Source: Escherichia coli (GTDB taxonomy: Bacteria; Pseudomonadota; Gammaproteobacteria; Enterobacterales; Enterobacteriaceae). Taken from it: DNA of 64,000 nt. A program made the position numbers. The first letter of the stretch is position 1, and every line of letters begins with the position of its first letter. The stretch lies in assembly GCF_051903065.1 (NCBI RefSeq), contig NZ_CP178438.1, one strand, 5' to 3'. Positions 36,668 through 51,600 of the stretch are shown here, piece by piece.

Positions 36668-39600
36668 TACGATAGACACTTTGTAGGCCGGATACGCGCA
36701 GCGCATCCGGCAACCGGTTAGTGGTGCGAAGAGATCTTCACGCCGCCTTCCGGGATTGGAACGTACGGTGTTTCTTTGTCAGTACGTTTGTCGCTGTTAC
36801 GCACCGCAAGCCAGGTTTTGAAACCGTAGAAGATGATGCTGTACACCACAATCAGGAACAGAATACTCAGGCCTGCGTTGGTGTAGTTGTTCACAACGAT
36901 GTGGTTCATGTTGGCAATCTGCTGCGCCGTCAAGTCAGTACCGTTAGCAATCTTCTCTTTGTACTGGCTTGCCATGTAGAAGAAGCCTTCCATCTGCGGG
37001 TTGGTGCTGAACAGTTTCAGACCCAGCGCCCAGGTGGTGCAGATAAGCAGCCATACAGCCGGAACAACAGTTACCCAGATGTATTGGGTGCGCTTCATCT
37101 TAATCAGCACAACGGTGCCCAGTACCAGCGCTACGGCTGCCAGCATCTGGTTGGAAATACCGAACAGCGGCCACAGGCTCTTAACGCCGCCCAGCGGATC
37201 GACCACGCCCTGATACAGCAGGTAGCCCCACAGACCCACACAGCCCGCAGTACCGATGATACCGGCAACCAGAGAGTCGGTTTTTTTCAGGAACGGGATG
37301 AAGTTACCCAGCAGGTCTTGCAGCATAAAGCGACCAGAACGGGTACCGGCATCCAGCGCGGTCAGAATGAACAGGGCTTCGAACAGAATACCGAAGTGAT
37401 ACCAGAAGCCCATGTCAGCCATCGGCAGCACTTTGTGGAACACGTGCGCGATACCTACCGCCAGTGTCGGCGCGCCACCTGCACGGTTCAGGACAGAAGG
37501 CTCACCAATGTCTTTCGCGGTTTGCAGGATCTGCTCTGGCGAAATCACGAAGCCCCAGGAGCTGACGGTTGCCGCCGCGTGTGCGGTAACGTCTTTCAGC
37601 TGCGCCATGATGATCGGCGCGTTCTCGCCACCCATTTCATGCAGGTTAGGCATGGTGATGCCAAGGCCAGCAGGCGGGGTATTCATCGCGAAGTAAAGAC
37701 CCGGTTCGATGATGGACGCAGCAACCAGCGCCATAATCGCCACGAAGGACTCCATCAGCATTGCGCCGTAGCCGATGAAACGCGCGTCGGTTTCGTTAGC
37801 CAGCAATTTCGGCGTCGTACCGGAAGAGATCAGCGCGTGGAAGCCAGATACCGCACCACAGGCGATGGTGATGAACAGGAACGGGAACAGAGCGCCTTTC
37901 CACAGCGGGCCAGTACCGTCAATGTACTGGGTCATCGCAGGCATTTTCAGTTCCGGGTTCAGCACCACGATACCCAGCGCCAGGCCGACGATAACGCCGA
38001 TTTTCAGGAAGGTTGCCAGATAGTCGCGCGGTGCGAGGATCAGCCACACCGGCAGCAGTGCGGAAACAAACGCATAGCCAATCAGCGCGAAGGTAATGGT
38101 GGTGTCTTTAAAGGTCAGTGCCGGACCCCAGTACGGATCGTGAGCAATCACGCCACCGAAGTAGATAGAGGCAACCAGCAGCACGATACCAATGACAGAG
38201 ACTTCACCCACACGCCCCGGACGGATAAAGCGCATGTAGATACCCATAAACAGCGCAATTGGTACGGTTGAGCAAACGGTGAAGACACCCCACGGACTTT
38301 CGGCCAGGGCTTTAACCACAATCAGCGCCAGGACGGCGAGGATGATGATCATGATTAAGAAACAGCCAAACAGCGCGATAGTCCCCGGTACTGGTCCCAT
38401 CTCTTCTTTGATCATCTCACCGAGAGATGCGCCGTTACGGCGAGAGGAGATAAACAGCACCATAAAGTCCTGAACCGCACCGGCCAGTACTACCCCCGCC
38501 AGCAGCCACAGCGTGCCAGGCAGGTAGCCCATCTGCGCGGCGAGAACCGGACCAACCAGCGGACCAGCACCGGCGATAGCGGCGAAGTGGTGACCAAACA
38601 ACACGTAACGGTTGGTCGGAACGTAGTTCAGACCGTCGTTGTTAATAACCGCAGGCGTCGCGCGCGTGGGGTCGAGTTTCATCACCTTCTGGGCGATGTA
38701 CAAACTGTAGTAGCGATACGCCACCAGATACACCGACACAGAGGCGACCACGATCCACAGGGCGCTGACGTGCTCCCCCCGACGTAATGCAACTACCGCG
38801 AGGCAGAATGCACCGATGATTCCGAGAATCACCCAGGGTATGTGCTTGAATAGTTTTTTCGTATCCATAGTAAAACCTGGCATTTTACTCGTCGTCTTTT
38901 GGCTTACAGGTGCGGCAGCTGCGTTCGTTCACCCCTGTCACTTACTGTTGTAAGCTCCCGGGGATTCACTCACTTGCTGCCTTCCTGCAAATCAAAATCC
39001 ATAGAGTAATTTGTTAATCATAGGCCGAAGCCGTTCTAGGTTTGCGTTGCGTTTGAGGAGGTAAATTGACCGCTATCCTGCAGTGATGTTGCCAGAGTTA
39101 CGCGCGCGTAAAGTAAGGTAAATAACTGAGTGGTTATATTAGGGATGTAAGCGGTCAGGAATGGCGGTGAGCGGTTGGGAAAGAATTATTCATCGGGTGG
39201 ATATGTGATTGAGATCACAATAAAAATGCCCCTTCGACGATTGCGTGAAGGGGCTGGAGCTTAAATCGCAGCTTCCATTTCCAGCATCACCGGATGGAAA
39301 CGGCGTTTAAAGTAGATAAGTCCGTGACCTTCTGCACTGAGGATGATGTTTTTAATCTCCACCAGATACACCAGATGTGTGCCAATTGCCTGCACATCGC
39401 GGATCTCACCTTCAAGACTGGCCAGCGAACCTTTCAGCACCGGCTGCGCCAGCGGACCTTTTTGCCAGCACGAGAGGCTAAAACGCTCTTCCATCGCCAT
39501 GCCCGTCATGCCCGCGAAGTGGCGCGCCATCAGTTCCTGCTCATGGTTGAGGACGTTGACGCACAACTTGCCGTTGCCCTGAAACACCGGGTTCATCGCA

Positions 39601-48600: not shown

Positions 48601-51600
48601 ACGCTGAAGATCAGATCGGCGGTGGTGCCTTGCTGGCGTAACTCGCCGTTGACGAAGGTGCGAAGGGTCAGATTATGCGGGTCCGGGATCGCCTCTTTCG
48701 GCACGATGGTTGAAAGCATCGGCGTCAGTCCGTCGCGGCTTTTTACCCGCAGGTTAGGGCGGTAGTAGTTTTCCAGGTAGTCGCGAATGGCGTAGTCGTT
48801 ACACACGGTGTAGCCCGCGACATAATCCATGGCATCGGCTTCGCTGACGTTACGCGCCTGCTTGCCAATCACCACCACCAGCTCCGCTTCGTAGTGCATG
48901 TATTCAATATTGTTCGGGCGCACGGAGGTCTGGTTATCGCCAGTGAGGGTATTCGGCGCTTTCAGGAACACCAGCGGTTCTTCCGGTGGCTTAAATTCCA
49001 GTTCGCTGGCGTGGTCGGCGTAGTTCAGGCCGAGGGCAAACAGCGTACCGTGCGGGTGTGGCCGCGTTGGGAAGCTCTTGCGCGTGGTCACTTCACGTTC
49101 GTCCACTACCGGATTTTCCAGCGGCGGGAAACCTTCTGCGAGAACACGCACGCGATCGCCTGGCTGTATTTCCACGCGCGCCTGTGGCGTGCCGAGCAGA
49201 ATGGCATCGCCTGGGTTCAGCGTGGCAAATTCGCTCAGGGCGCTCAGCAGCTGTGCGGCGTTACGTTGTAAATCGGCGGTGTTCCAGTGATCGGCAGGAC
49301 GCCCGTTGATCTCGGTATAGATAGTCAGATTATCGACATTGCTGAGAGCCACGGTTTCGCCAATTGGGCAGAATCCATCACGACATTTTGCTTTGATTGC
49401 CGGACGGTAAAAGCTCTCTTCCGGCAGGCTGACGTCGTTAGCCAGCGCATATCCGGCGATGTACTCTGCCGCATCTTCTTCACGTACTTTCGTCGCCGTT
49501 TTTCCCACAATCAGCGCAACTGTCGCACCGCTCAGTACCTTTTCACCCTGTGGAAAGGGAATCGGTTCACCGCAACCAATCACCGTATTGCGCGGTTTAA
49601 TAAACCAGACTGCAGTTTTAGGCGGGGCTTTGTAGGGGGATTGCTGGAACGCTTCCTGCCAGGCATCAAGTTGGCTGCGATGGTTCAATGCTACGGCGAA
49701 GATAGTGCCTTTCATTACCACTCCTCGGATTCGATCATCTTAATCATTAATATGTTAATGATTACTTTTATTCCCGATTGCGTAGTTTGGCAAAAGTAAG
49801 TGATGTAAATGTGATCTAATTAACAAACTATTTACATTTAAAGATAATAAAATATTAAATATCAGCAAGTTAACAAAACATGATCAATTTTGATAAAATG
49901 AAGAATTGCGGGGGCAGCTCAGTCCCGGTAACGTGATGATTAATTGTTTCTATATTAATGATTTTGAATTTTTCAGGGGAAAGATAATGCACGACTCACT
50001 AACCATTGCGTTGCTCCAGGCGCGAGAAGCGGCGATGAGTTATTTTCGCCCAATCGTTAAACGGCATAATTTGACTGAGCAACAGTGGCGCATCGTGCGT
50101 ATTCTGGCGGAAAGCCCATCAATGGATTTTCACGATCTGGCGTATCGCGCCTGCATTTTGCGCCCAAGCCTGACCGGGATCCTCACGCGGATGGAACGCG
50201 ACGGTTTAGTATTGCGATTAAAGCCGATCAATGATCAGCGGAAGCTCTATATCTCGCTGACCAAAGAGGGGCAGGCGCTGTATAACCGCGCTCAGACACA
50301 GATTGAAGAAGCCTATCGGCAGATTGAAGCTCAGTTTACTGCCGAGAAAATGCAACAGTTAACCCATCTGTTAGAGGAATTTATTGCTCTGGGCAATTCC
50401 CGACAAGAAGACATCCCGGGCGATAATGAATAACTTTTTAGTATCTGATAACCAGCGCCTGGTTTTCCATGGATGGCGGGTTACACCTTTTCATAAAGTT
50501 TTTGCTTTCCAGGCCGAAAATCTTGCATCGGTCCACAGGAAAGAGAAACCATGTTAAAACGTATCAAGATCGTGACCAGCTTACTGCTGGTTTTGGCCGT
50601 TTTTGGCCTTTTACAACTGACATCAGGCGGTCTGTTCTTTAATGCCTTAAAGAATGACAAAGAAAATTTCACTGTTTTACAAACCATTCGCCAGCAGCAA
50701 TCCACGCTGAATGGCAGCTGGGTCGCGTTGTTGCAGACGCGTAACACCCTCAACCGCGCGGGTATCCGCTACATGATGGATCAGAATAATATTGGTAGCG
50801 GTTCAACCGTTGCTGAGCTGATGCAGAGTGCCAGTATTTCGCTGAAACAGGCGGAAAAAAACTGGGCGGATTACGAAGCGTTGCCGCGTGACCCGCGTCA
50901 GAGCACCGCCGCAGCGGCAGAGATCAAACGTAATTACGATATTTATCACAATGCGCTGGCGGAGCTGATCCAACTGTTAGGTGCAGGCAAAATCAACGAG
51001 TTCTTTGATCAGCCGACCCAGGGATATCAAGACGGTTTCGAGAAGCAGTATGTGGCTTACATGGAGCAAAACGATCGGCTCTATGATATCGCCGTCAGCG
51101 ATAACAATGCCTCCTACAGCCAGGCGATGTGGATTCTGGTGGGCGTGATGATCGTCGTACTGGCGGTCATCTTCGCCGTCTGGTTCGGTATTAAAGCCTC
51201 GCTGGTAGCGCCAATGAATCGCCTGATTGACAGCATTCGTCATATTGCAGGCGGCGATCTGGTGAAACCGATTGAGGTGGATGGCTCTAATGAGATGGGG
51301 CAACTGGCAGAGAGTTTGCGCCATATGCAGGGAGAACTGATGCGTACCGTCGGTGATGTGCGCAACGGGGCCAATGCCATCTATAGCGGTGCCAGCGAAA
51401 TCGCTACCGGTAATAACGATCTCTCTTCGCGCACCGAGCAACAGGCCGCTTCGCTGGAAGAGACGGCAGCCAGCATGGAGCAACTGACCGCAACGGTGAA
51501 ACAGAACGCCGAGAATGCGCGCCAGGCCAGCCACCTGGCGTTAAGTGCTTCTGAAACGGCGCAACGCGGCGGCAAAGTGGTGGATAACGTGGTGCAGACT

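Follow-up and report, generated by a model that had tools for sequence, protein, structure and literature searches.

A classical hpa cluster in a polymorphic, probably old slot between btsT and tsr of Escherichia coli

Main

Between the pyruvate/H+ symporter gene btsT (yjiY) and the serine chemoreceptor gene tsr, a 64,000-nucleotide stretch of an Escherichia coli genome (assembly GCF_051903065.1, contig NZ_CP178438.1; hereafter the window) carries the classical 4-hydroxyphenylacetate (4-HPA) cluster at its published locus, in what is very probably an old tsr-hpa-btsT arrangement of the Enterobacteriaceae, occupying a polymorphic slot, and not a recent mobile island. We regard the arrangement as ancient because hpaC adjoins btsT across genera, hpa and btsT have diverged to similar degrees, and a relic of hpaC persists in a cryptic Escherichia lineage. 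A first-pass annotation of the window had described the cluster as an inserted island; that description is not supported, given the lack of mobility marks, the occurrence of hpa at this position in six or more other genera and its btsT-like divergence. The finding itself is ordinary, the cluster being already known at this locus.

Results

Eleven hpa genes fill positions 39261–50433, with hpaC-B-A-X-I-H-F-D-E-G on the minus strand and hpaR on the plus strand (Table 1). A genome with only 2 nt of difference over 17 kb has the same 11 genes in its RefSeq annotation, and each of the 11 proteins scores above its NCBIfam equivalog cut-off, in agreement with the first-pass identification of an 11-gene 4-HPA cluster. 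All eight enzyme genes (hpaB, C, G, E, D, F, H and I) are present and intact, with full-length matches above those cut-offs; the AraC-type regulator hpaA, the MarR-type regulator hpaR and the permease hpaX also score above theirs, and both the gene order and the location between a cstA homologue (btsT/yjiY) and tsr are as published. From this gene content, the cluster is predicted to support growth on 3- and 4-hydroxyphenylacetate via meta-cleavage of homoprotocatechuate to pyruvate and succinic semialdehyde. Labour would be divided among the hydroxylase (hpaBC), an activator and a permease (hpaA and hpaX), the meta-cleavage enzymes (hpaGEDFHI) and a repressor (hpaR). The use of 3-HPA is governed by residue 379 of HpaB (PMC7201708).

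The window's hpaG translates without a stop. In the nearest RefSeq genome the same gene has an internal stop, arising from a 1-nt difference from the window. The AT-rich interval that separates the divergent hpaG and hpaR contains sigma-70-like hexamer pairs on both strands and, in the light of published work on the hpa cluster, is presumably their control region. REP elements occur at the two sites reported in the first pass, three copies between hpaX and hpaI and one between hpaH and hpaF; these internal copies are degenerate, and the consensus GCCGGATGCGGCG…CGCCTTATCCGGCCTAC is exact in the copy outside the cluster.

Table 1 Features of the btsT-hpa-tsr region in window coordinates.
Feature	Position	Strand	Evidence
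REP outside the cluster, between btsT and yjiX	36637-36670	.	Sequence
btsT (yjiY), pyruvate/H+ symporter, left flanking gene	36718..38868	-	Near-identical RefSeq genome; CstA-family model match
ERIC/IRU repeat in btsT leader, 17 nt upstream of ATG	38886..39008	.	Gap in K-12 alignment; ERIC-PCR primers
btsT promoter module: BtsR/YehT repeats TAAGCGGT (39148-39155) and TGAGCGGT (39168-39175), CRP site TGTGATTGAGATCACA (39204-39219)	39148..39219	-	Sequence; published YehT oligo
Putative intrinsic terminator of hpaBC	39228..39254	-	-20.4 kcal/mol, z = -4.97, then AUUUUUAUU
hpaC, flavin reductase component	39261..39773	-	NF012030, 385.6 bits (cut-off 315)
hpaB, 4-HPA 3-monooxygenase oxygenase component	39791..41353	-	TIGR02310, 1107.5 bits (cut-off 885)
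hpaA, AraC-type activator of hpaBC	41604..42494	-	TIGR02297, 390.3 bits (cut-off 274.65)
hpaX, 4-HPA permease (MFS)	42504..43880	-	TIGR02332, 890.2 bits (cut-off 615.4)
Three REP elements between hpaX and hpaI	43926-43958, 43977-44005, 44020-44049 (inverted)	.	Sequence
hpaI, 4-hydroxy-2-oxoheptanedioate aldolase (to pyruvate + succinic semialdehyde)	44050..44838	-	TIGR02311, 432.2 bits (cut-off 368.8)
hpaH, 2-oxo-hept-4-ene-1,7-dioate hydratase	44849..45652	-	TIGR02312, 464.2 bits (cut-off 351.5)
Single REP between hpaH and hpaF	45672-45705	.	Sequence
hpaF, 5-carboxymethyl-2-hydroxymuconate isomerase	45720..46100	-	NF011605, 264.6 bits (cut-off 215)
hpaD, homoprotocatechuate 2,3-dioxygenase	46110..46961	-	TIGR02298, 549.9 bits (cut-off 315.95)
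hpaE, CHMS dehydrogenase	46963..48429	-	TIGR02299, 739.3 bits (cut-off 638.35)
hpaG, bifunctional isomerase/decarboxylase	48426..49715	-	NF011750, 977.7 bits (cut-off 811)
Presumed divergent hpaG/hpaR control region, AT-rich	49716..49986	.	GC 0.445 (composition window 49500-50499)
hpaR, MarR-type repressor of meta-cleavage operon, transcribed toward tsr	49987..50433	+	TIGR02337, 201.1 bits (cut-off 121.2)
tsr sigma-28 promoter, TAAAGTTT (50494-50501)-N11-GCCGAAAA (50513-50520)	50494..50520	+	Sequence
tsr, serine chemoreceptor, right flanking gene	50551..52215	+	NF011615, 1225.5 bits (cut-off 947); RefSeq annotation

On the btsT side, the BtsR/YehT repeats coincide with a published YehT-binding oligonucleotide (PMC4847170), and the CRP 16-mer has both half-sites of TGTGA-N6-TCACA perfect. 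Expression of btsT depends on CRP in K-12, where deletion of crp abolishes promoter activity (PMC7730263), and by its sequence the 16-mer qualifies as the CRP site of the btsT promoter. Among 29 other taxa (from about 14 genera), 26 share the 72-nt promoter span without a change, two have a 1-nt difference and one gave no match; the CRP site stands at a fixed spacing in about 30 taxa. Beyond it, the 3′ hairpin of hpaC (GCCCCTTC…GAAGGGGC; 8+3 bp stem) has the GC-rich stem and, on the hpaC strand, the U-tract expected of a Rho-independent terminator, which it is predicted to be. A simple terminator scan missed this hairpin because its loop exceeds 8 nt. The first-pass positions of the terminator, CRP site, BtsR repeats, sigma-28 promoter and REPs were right to within 1–2 bp. 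The distance from the BtsR/YehT repeats to the terminator stem, given there as about 50 bp, measures 52 bp; the CRP site was correctly placed next to the terminator, at a distance of 8 nt and not 9 bp.

Elements of the ERIC (IRU) type are imperfect palindromes of about 127 bp that lie in transcribed intergenic regions and contain the ERIC1R and ERIC2 primer sites. The one in the btsT leader adds 123 bp relative to K-12 and is absent from the K-12 and O157-type alleles; within it, the two ERIC-PCR primer sequences match at 38926–38969 in inverted orientation with 2–3 mismatches, against a chance expectation of 0. Its insertion junction occurs in 2062 genomes, compared with 2067 hpa-plus genomes; this ERIC is linked, and specific, to the hpa-plus haplotype.

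Promoters upstream of class III flagellar genes follow the sigma-28 (FliA) consensus, TAAAGTTT-N11-GCCGATAA-like, and the elements before tsr fit it. They begin exactly 60 nt from the end of the hpaR stop, the distance given in the first pass, and the promoter is kept in Enterobacter, Lelliottia, Citrobacter, Salmonella and Kosakonia; in K-12, published SELEX data for the RpoF holoenzyme show a peak in the yjiY/tsr spacer (PMC5493296). Downstream of hpaR we found no convincing terminator (fold z = -0.26). At both ends of the cluster transcription points outward, in the same sense as the adjoining gene.

Alleles of the btsT-tsr slot

The btsT-tsr spacer of the K-12 strain DH5alpha is only 377 bp long and lacks hpa, in line with the earlier statement that K-12 is not the source strain. 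K-12 homology breaks off beyond the CRP site and is regained at 50490, which makes the first-pass span of 39204–50493 right to within a few base pairs; on a stricter view, identity collapses already at about 39159 and recovers at 50490, with ordinary values of 98–99% in the flanking genes. The cluster is found in 2067 of 5426 complete E. coli genomes (38%), the remaining 62% being without hpa at this site. An 87-bp filler of K-12 type, homologous to a segment of E. albertii, is present in 2753 genomes, and an unrelated 773-bp segment in 363 genomes, from O157:H7/O55:H7 strains. The CRP half-sites and the sigma-28 promoter are the same in all three alleles. E. coli is therefore polymorphic for the presence or absence of hpa, and, as the K-12-type allele is common to E. 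albertii, the hpa-minus state too is old in Escherichia.

Escherichia alone has at least five different contents in the slot. In the cross-species comparison, which took one genome per species and returned only three non-coli Escherichia genomes, Escherichia sp. MOD1-EC7003, of a cryptic lineage, retains the hpaC terminator and the last 113 bp of hpaC, a deletion scar. EC974 encodes window-type BtsT and Tsr proteins but has a K-12-like proximal promoter, and is therefore a mosaic. In Citrobacter NCU1 a hydroxyproline cluster adjoins hpaR, and Escherichia sp. E1V33 has the same cluster beside btsT.

Other genera

Klebsiella, Raoultella, Enterobacter, Lelliottia, Pseudocitrobacter and some Citrobacter all have hpaC immediately upstream of btsT, together with the same CRP/BtsR module. 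The complete order tsr-hpaR…hpaC-btsT, with dnaT-dnaC-yjjA-opgB beyond tsr, is found in Enterobacter asburiae and Lelliottia, the latter with no more than about 27 bp between the hpaR stop and the -35 element of tsr. In several genera the hpaC terminator abuts the CRP site. In Klebsiella hpa adjoins btsT, but without tsr. A K-12-like spacer of about 90–100 bp joins tsr to btsT in the Citrobacter freundii group, Salmonella arizonae, Kosakonia and Kluyvera. Nucleotide identity to E. coli is 78–89% for most hpa genes and 84–88% for btsT, with hpaX at 70–73% in some lineages. Pseudocitrobacter departs from this pattern: its hpaI, hpaH, hpaD and hpaE are 90–96% identical to those of E. coli and its btsT only 86–87%, so that some hpa DNA has been exchanged between genera.

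Discussion

Could the cluster nonetheless be a horizontally acquired island that entered an ancestral spacer of K-12 type in this strain's lineage? Its variability among strains, its make-up as a self-contained catabolic cassette that brings regulators and a transporter of its own, the direct tsr-btsT adjacency in many genera and in E. albertii, and the unusually high identity of the Pseudocitrobacter patch all speak for such an origin, and Prieto et al. in 1996 reportedly presented hpa as the recruitment of a catabolic cassette. We nevertheless consider it improbable. Between btsT and tsr there is no integrase or recombinase gene and no tRNA/tmRNA site, every ORF being an hpa gene, and an Rfam search of 36000–53000 returned nothing at the gathering threshold. 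The two boundaries have no repeat in common, direct or inverted, that reaches 9 nt; the junctions share 0 direct 8-mers, where shuffled sequences give about 0.36, and one inverted 8-mer. GC content does not deviate, at 0.51–0.60 inside the cluster and 0.52–0.58 in btsT and tsr, with only the hpaG/hpaR control region AT-rich. Matches to hpa in a plasmid collection were mostly to multi-megabase or non-mobilizable records, with one partial match on a conjugative record. Six or more other genera have hpa in this position and orientation, two of them with the complete flanking synteny, and neither absence from the syntenic site nor discordant divergence sets hpa apart, the Pseudocitrobacter patch excepted. 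Finally, the K-12 site is not empty and holds a replacement segment. Together with the hpaC relic, synteny, matching divergence and missing mobility marks largely refute a recent insertion.

It is similarly doubtful that the linkage is kept by functional coupling, in which hpaBC read-through or a shared CRP site would boost btsT, pyruvate from the pathway would serve as BtsT substrate, or hpaR read-through would reach tsr. Outward transcription at both ends, the lack of a convincing terminator after hpaR, the short hpaR-tsr distance in Lelliottia and the terminators abutting the CRP site in several genera would all suit such coupling, as would the predicted production of pyruvate by HpaI and its import by BtsT (annotations and PMC7730263). 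Yet many genera, and most E. coli, lack hpa here and keep the same btsT and tsr promoter elements; Klebsiella has hpa beside btsT in the absence of tsr, an extra gene separates hpaC from btsT in Enterobacter and Lelliottia, and the hpaC end has a strong terminator. The chances are about even, in contrast, that the slot is a recombination hotspot, with the promoter modules and flanking genes as homology anchors between which unrelated cassettes (hpa, hydroxyproline catabolism, a TRAP transporter, a small ORF) are exchanged. The multiplicity of contents within Escherichia, ordinary flank identity with abrupt collapse and recovery, the EC974 mosaic and the hydroxyproline cluster beside either hpaR or btsT favour this reading, which is compatible with the old arrangement and not opposed to it.

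In the old-arrangement reading that we prefer, E. coli is polymorphic in the slot bounded by the btsT promoter module and the sigma-28 promoter of tsr, where at least three unrelated segments alternate (hpa, the 87-bp filler and the 773-bp O157-type segment). Deletion or replacement would have produced these alleles, and homologous recombination within the conserved flanks would have spread them. The strong hpaC terminator, so close to the CRP site, probably shields the btsT promoter, which depends on BtsR and CRP, from co-directional hpaBC transcription. Cross-genus parsimony cannot separate ancestral presence followed by many losses from one ancient gain with flank-mediated spread. A published account of the same 11 genes, in which strains B, C and W grow on HPA and K-12 does not, passes on the suggestion that an ancestral cluster was lost in K-12 (PMC7201708).

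Relation to known systems

The closest relative is the cluster of E. coli W, reportedly described by Prieto, Diaz and Garcia (J Bacteriol 1996) as 11 genes with a cstA homologue (now btsT) on one side and tsr on the other, and with internal REPs. The W cluster has the same genes, order and orientation as the window, and is reported to contain five internal REPs against four here. In the comparison with W proposed in the first-pass annotation, the W derivative KO11FL is collinear and aligns over 100% of window positions 38000–52000 at 97.7% identity. BL21(DE3), an E. coli B strain, is also collinear and matches the full length (100%) of that query, at 98.1% identity, and the hpa/hpc clusters of E. 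coli B (BL21/REL606) and C show only allelic differences from the window; in B strains, the 11 hpa genes lie in a region of 11,127 bp (PMC7201708). The REPs and ERIC show no difference of note from the enterobacterial REP/BIME and ERIC (IRU) repeats. Further afield, the clusters of Klebsiella, Raoultella, Enterobacter, Lelliottia, Pseudocitrobacter and Citrobacter have the hpa gene order of the window. Unlike the window, K. michiganensis has hpaG split into two genes, and some other lineages have extra HTH or WYL genes between hpaC and btsT, or other short ORFs within the cluster.

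Gene content of the btsT–tsr interval

The first-pass annotation had placed 11 hpa (4-hydroxyphenylacetate catabolic) genes between btsT (pyruvate/H+ symporter, formerly yjiY) and tsr (serine chemoreceptor), and curated NCBIfam models bear this out, with 11 of 11 products above their equivalog cut-offs. The same annotation had excluded K-12 as the source, rightly, as the window carries an hpa cluster that K-12 lacks. The nearest RefSeq genome, the human faecal isolate E. coli 23CRST027 from Ecuador (NZ_AP045789.1), differs at 2 of 17,001 positions; its hpaG is annotated as a pseudogene owing to an internal stop from a single C/A difference, while that of the window is intact. 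Hydroxyphenylacetates arise in the gut as tyrosine and polyphenols are broken down, and the source strain is probably able to use them for growth.

REP elements were found inside and near the cluster where they had first been placed. An exact consensus search returned only two canonical copies, both outside the cluster, the internal elements being degenerate, and an Rfam scan of 36–53 kb returned nothing at gathering threshold. In a variant hpa cluster from E. coli O17_K12a (L004 4081–8126; L numbers denote comparison loci from other genomes), with no more than 81% of the query aligned, hpaB and hpaA are separated by an extra MBL-fold metallo-hydrolase gene, hpaX is shorter and hpaI longer; the hpaX/hpaI spacer is almost nil, so the REP cluster is absent there.

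Features of the btsT–tsr region in window coordinates; every hpa product is full length and above its NCBIfam equivalog cut-off
Feature	Position	Strand	Remark
REP	36637–36670		outside the cluster
btsT	36718–38868	minus	left flank
ERIC/IRU element	~38886–39008		123 bp, btsT 5′ leader, 17 nt upstream of ATG
btsT promoter module	39148–39219		
BtsR/YehT half-site 1	39148–39155		
BtsR/YehT half-site 2	39168–39175		
CRP site	39204–39219		perfect core TGTGATTGAGATCACA
hpaC terminator hairpin	39228–39254		
hpaC	39261–39773	minus	
hpaB	39791–41353	minus	
hpaA	41604–42494	minus	
hpaX	42504–43880	minus	
Three REPs	43926–43958, 43977–44005, 44020–44049		between hpaX and hpaI, by eye
hpaI	44050–44838	minus	
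hpaH	44849–45652	minus	
REP	45672–45705		between hpaH and hpaF, by eye
hpaF	45720–46100	minus	
hpaD	46110–46961	minus	
hpaE	46963–48429	minus	
hpaG	48426–49715	minus	
hpaR	49987–50433	plus	
tsr sigma-28 promoter	50494–50520	plus	TAAAGTTT-N11-GCCGAAAA, read from sequence
tsr	50551–52215	plus	right flank

Alleles of the slot

Alignment with K-12, represented by DH5alpha, confirmed a btsT–tsr spacer without hpa, here of 377 bp. Homology with the window continues through the CRP site and returns at 50490, 4 bases before the sigma-28 −35 element, so that 11,270 bp (39220–50489) of the window replace 87 bp of K-12. A search of this 87-bp filler for hpa remnants found none, the sole match being a 19-nt chance match; the filler is thus a distinct segment with no detectable relation to hpa, and the K-12 site is not empty. 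Identity between the two alleles is 82% at 39134–39173 and 42% at 39174–39213, and past the drop conservation is limited to the second BtsR half-site, the CRP half-sites and the spacing of these elements. As this drop precedes the CRP site, the start of allele-specific DNA falls within the btsT promoter, near 39159.

Among 5426 complete E. coli genomes, 2067 (38%) were hpa-plus, defined as at least 80% of the 38000–52000 query, 2753 had the K-12-type filler, 363 had a third, unrelated AT-rich segment of 773 bp, and about 240 had none of the three. The third allele (L003 1600–2372; L085 663–1205) is found mainly in O157:H7 and O55:H7. Its one gene product named here, the 180-aa hypothetical protein WP_000934391.1, has no significant match in Pfam or PADLOC, and in strain EC974 the gene is a pseudogene. 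Carriage of hpa by O157:H7 was ruled out, the third allele standing there instead.

Further arrangements were seen at single loci. In Escherichia sp. E1V33 (L005 1–9650), a hydroxyproline catabolic cluster (4-hydroxyproline epimerase, FAD oxidases, a DHDPS-like enzyme, aldehyde dehydrogenase, an AraC regulator and a permease) replaces hpa and abuts the btsT CRP site, and a cluster of the same gene families adjoins hpaR in Citrobacter sp. NCU1 (L090 1–6530). Escherichia albertii NBRC 107761 (L007 9163–9696) carries the K-12-type filler, with tsr cut to approximately its first 340 bp and joined directly to the sequence downstream of tsr.

An old polymorphism rather than an inserted island

The first-pass annotation had read hpa as an inserted island, a model that the present comparison does not sustain. 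The site holds no recombinase or tRNA gene, searches of the boundaries returned no target-site duplications, inverted repeats or shared junction repeats, and the GC content of the cluster is unremarkable. Mobility on plasmids was considered and is unsupported: matches to hpa in plasmid collections are mostly multi-megabase or non-mobilizable records, most of them probably chromosomal DNA that has been mislabelled. One 72-kb E. coli plasmid (NZ_MT162140.1) has a fragment resembling hpaC/hpaB, 83% identical.

The cluster also occupies the same site in other genera. Mapping the neighbours of btsT with a BtsT query and one genome per species placed hpaC immediately upstream, on the same strand, in four Raoultella genomes, three species of the Klebsiella oxytoca group, Enterobacter asburiae, Enterobacter sp. 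10-1, Lelliottia nimipressuralis, two Pseudocitrobacter species and three Citrobacter genomes. Of four loci that we extended, those of E. asburiae and Lelliottia retain the full order tsr-hpaR-hpaGEDFHI-hpaXA-hpaBC-btsT, and in both, as in E. coli, dnaT-dnaC-yjjA-opgB lies on the far side of tsr; Pseudocitrobacter has four additional genes between tsr and hpaR, and the Klebsiella locus lacks tsr. Small insertions accompany some of these clusters: an HTH gene (E. asburiae, L088 19114–19371) or a WYL-domain gene (Lelliottia, L091 18565–19482) between hpaC and the btsT promoter, and in Lelliottia two small genes between hpaA and hpaB, one dnstrm_HI1420-like (L091 15446–16122). In many genera tsr adjoins btsT across a spacer of about 90–100 bp.

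Nucleotide identity to the window is 78–89% for most hpa genes (70–73% for hpaX in some lineages) against 84–88% for btsT in the same genomes, a similarity in divergence predicted by co-inheritance. Some inter-genus exchange has nonetheless occurred, as indicated by a high-identity patch in Pseudocitrobacter (L046, L049), where hpaI, hpaH, hpaD and hpaE are 90–96% identical to E. coli, against 86–87% for btsT and 82–88% for btsT, hpaB, hpaC, hpaA and hpaX together; this looks like recombination within the meta-cleavage operon. Loss has left its own trace in Escherichia sp. MOD1-EC7003 (L006 6297–9978), where the hpaC terminator and last 113 bp of hpaC remain beside btsT, followed by the TRAP-transporter genes dctP, dctQ and dctM, with tsr and lgoT missing; this relic is a deletion scar. 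The E. albertii homologue of the K-12 filler indicates that the hpa-minus allele is old as well.

The evidence thus speaks against an island insertion, at least on the E. coli timescale, and hpa represents an old polymorphism, present in some strains and absent from others, at a chromosomal slot that is itself conserved; 'island' is the wrong model for it. The data agree with loss of an ancestral cluster by K-12, proposed in a 2001 review by Diaz and colleagues as relayed by PMC7201708, and are compatible both with ancestral presence followed by repeated loss and with one ancient gain spread by recombination in the flanks.

Regulatory context at the two edges

Transcription at both edges of hpa runs outward and in sense with the adjacent gene, hpaBC toward btsT and hpaR toward tsr. 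At the btsT edge, the predicted hairpin at the end of hpaC was upheld by folding (−20.4 kcal/mol, z = −5 against shuffles) and is trailed by AUUUUUAUU on the hpaC strand; a simple terminator scan overlooked it because its loop exceeds 8 nt. The adjoining CRP site also stood, with a perfect core, at 8 nt from the stem instead of the 9 first given. A GC-rich hairpin occupies the same position beside the CRP site in Citrobacter, Raoultella and Klebsiella. The strong terminator at the end of hpaC would insulate the btsT promoter from hpaBC transcription.

The BtsR/YehT half-sites, which had likewise been recognized in the first reading, coincide with the YehT-binding oligonucleotide of PMC4847170, and CRP is required for btsT expression (PMC7730263; PMC5431176). 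Together they form a module, T(A/G)AGCGGT-N12-N(A/G)AGCGGT-N28-TGTGAT-N6-CAC, whose span is exactly 72 nt in 26 of the 29 further taxa examined, from about 14 genera (L002–L078), off by one nucleotide in two and without a match in one. Its layout is strikingly constrained; its spacers vary freely, and the same module occurs with or without hpa. The second BtsR repeat (btsT strand) reads ACCGCTCA in the hpa-plus haplotype of E. coli and GCCGCTCA in K-12; K-12 and E. albertii have GAGCGGC as the second half-site in place of GAGCGGT.

An ERIC element in the btsT leader further separates the window from K-12 and O157-type alleles, and is also lacking in hpa-plus genera outside Escherichia. Its insertion junction occurs in 2062 complete E. 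coli genomes against 2067 that are hpa-plus, which suggests one linked ERIC–hpa haplotype, as judged from these totals and from individual loci (L004). Because CsrA controls the synthesis of BtsT (PMC5431176), we speculate that a structured repeat within the leader could plausibly modify it, which would make ERIC the cis difference of greater likely consequence for btsT.

At the opposite edge, the hpaR stop lies exactly 60 nt from the tsr sigma-28 promoter, as originally measured, and RpoF holoenzyme binding has been published for the K-12 yjiY/tsr spacer (PMC5493296). Folding found no convincing terminator 3′ of hpaR (z = −0.26), and some low-level read-through may therefore reach tsr. The idea of Tsr as a dihydroxyphenylacetate sensor was dropped after a literature search for both terms together found no paper.

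We consider it rather unlikely, at present, that the slot is a long-lived cassette-exchange site of the Enterobacteriaceae at which the hpa-plus haplotype alters btsT control in cis. Under such a scheme, alternative cassettes (hpa, hydroxyproline, TRAP transporter, small ORFs) would be swapped by homologous recombination, and the leader ERIC, the variant second BtsR repeat and the hpaBC terminator against the CRP site would constitute the cis changes, with pyruvate uptake regulated differently in hpa-plus and hpa-minus strains. 

Studies in K-12 of tsr and of btsT, the latter for pyruvate sensing and uptake, concern a promoter context unlike that of the 38% of complete E. coli genomes that are hpa-plus, in which the leader carries ERIC, the distal promoter is divergent in sequence and an upstream operon is directed toward btsT. 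Beyond strain typing, the cluster itself matters little.

Relation to known hpa loci

Prieto et al. reportedly described in 1996 an 11-gene cluster of E. coli W that contains REP elements and lies between a cstA-like gene and tsr. The W-derived strain KO11FL and BL21(DE3) each align over the whole of 38000–52000, at 97.7% and 98.1% identity to the window, respectively. The locus is thus already known and its finding here an accurate re-description, and the new material is incremental: gene order shared across genera, a slot with several alleles, the linkage of ERIC to hpa and a btsT promoter module of fixed spacing.
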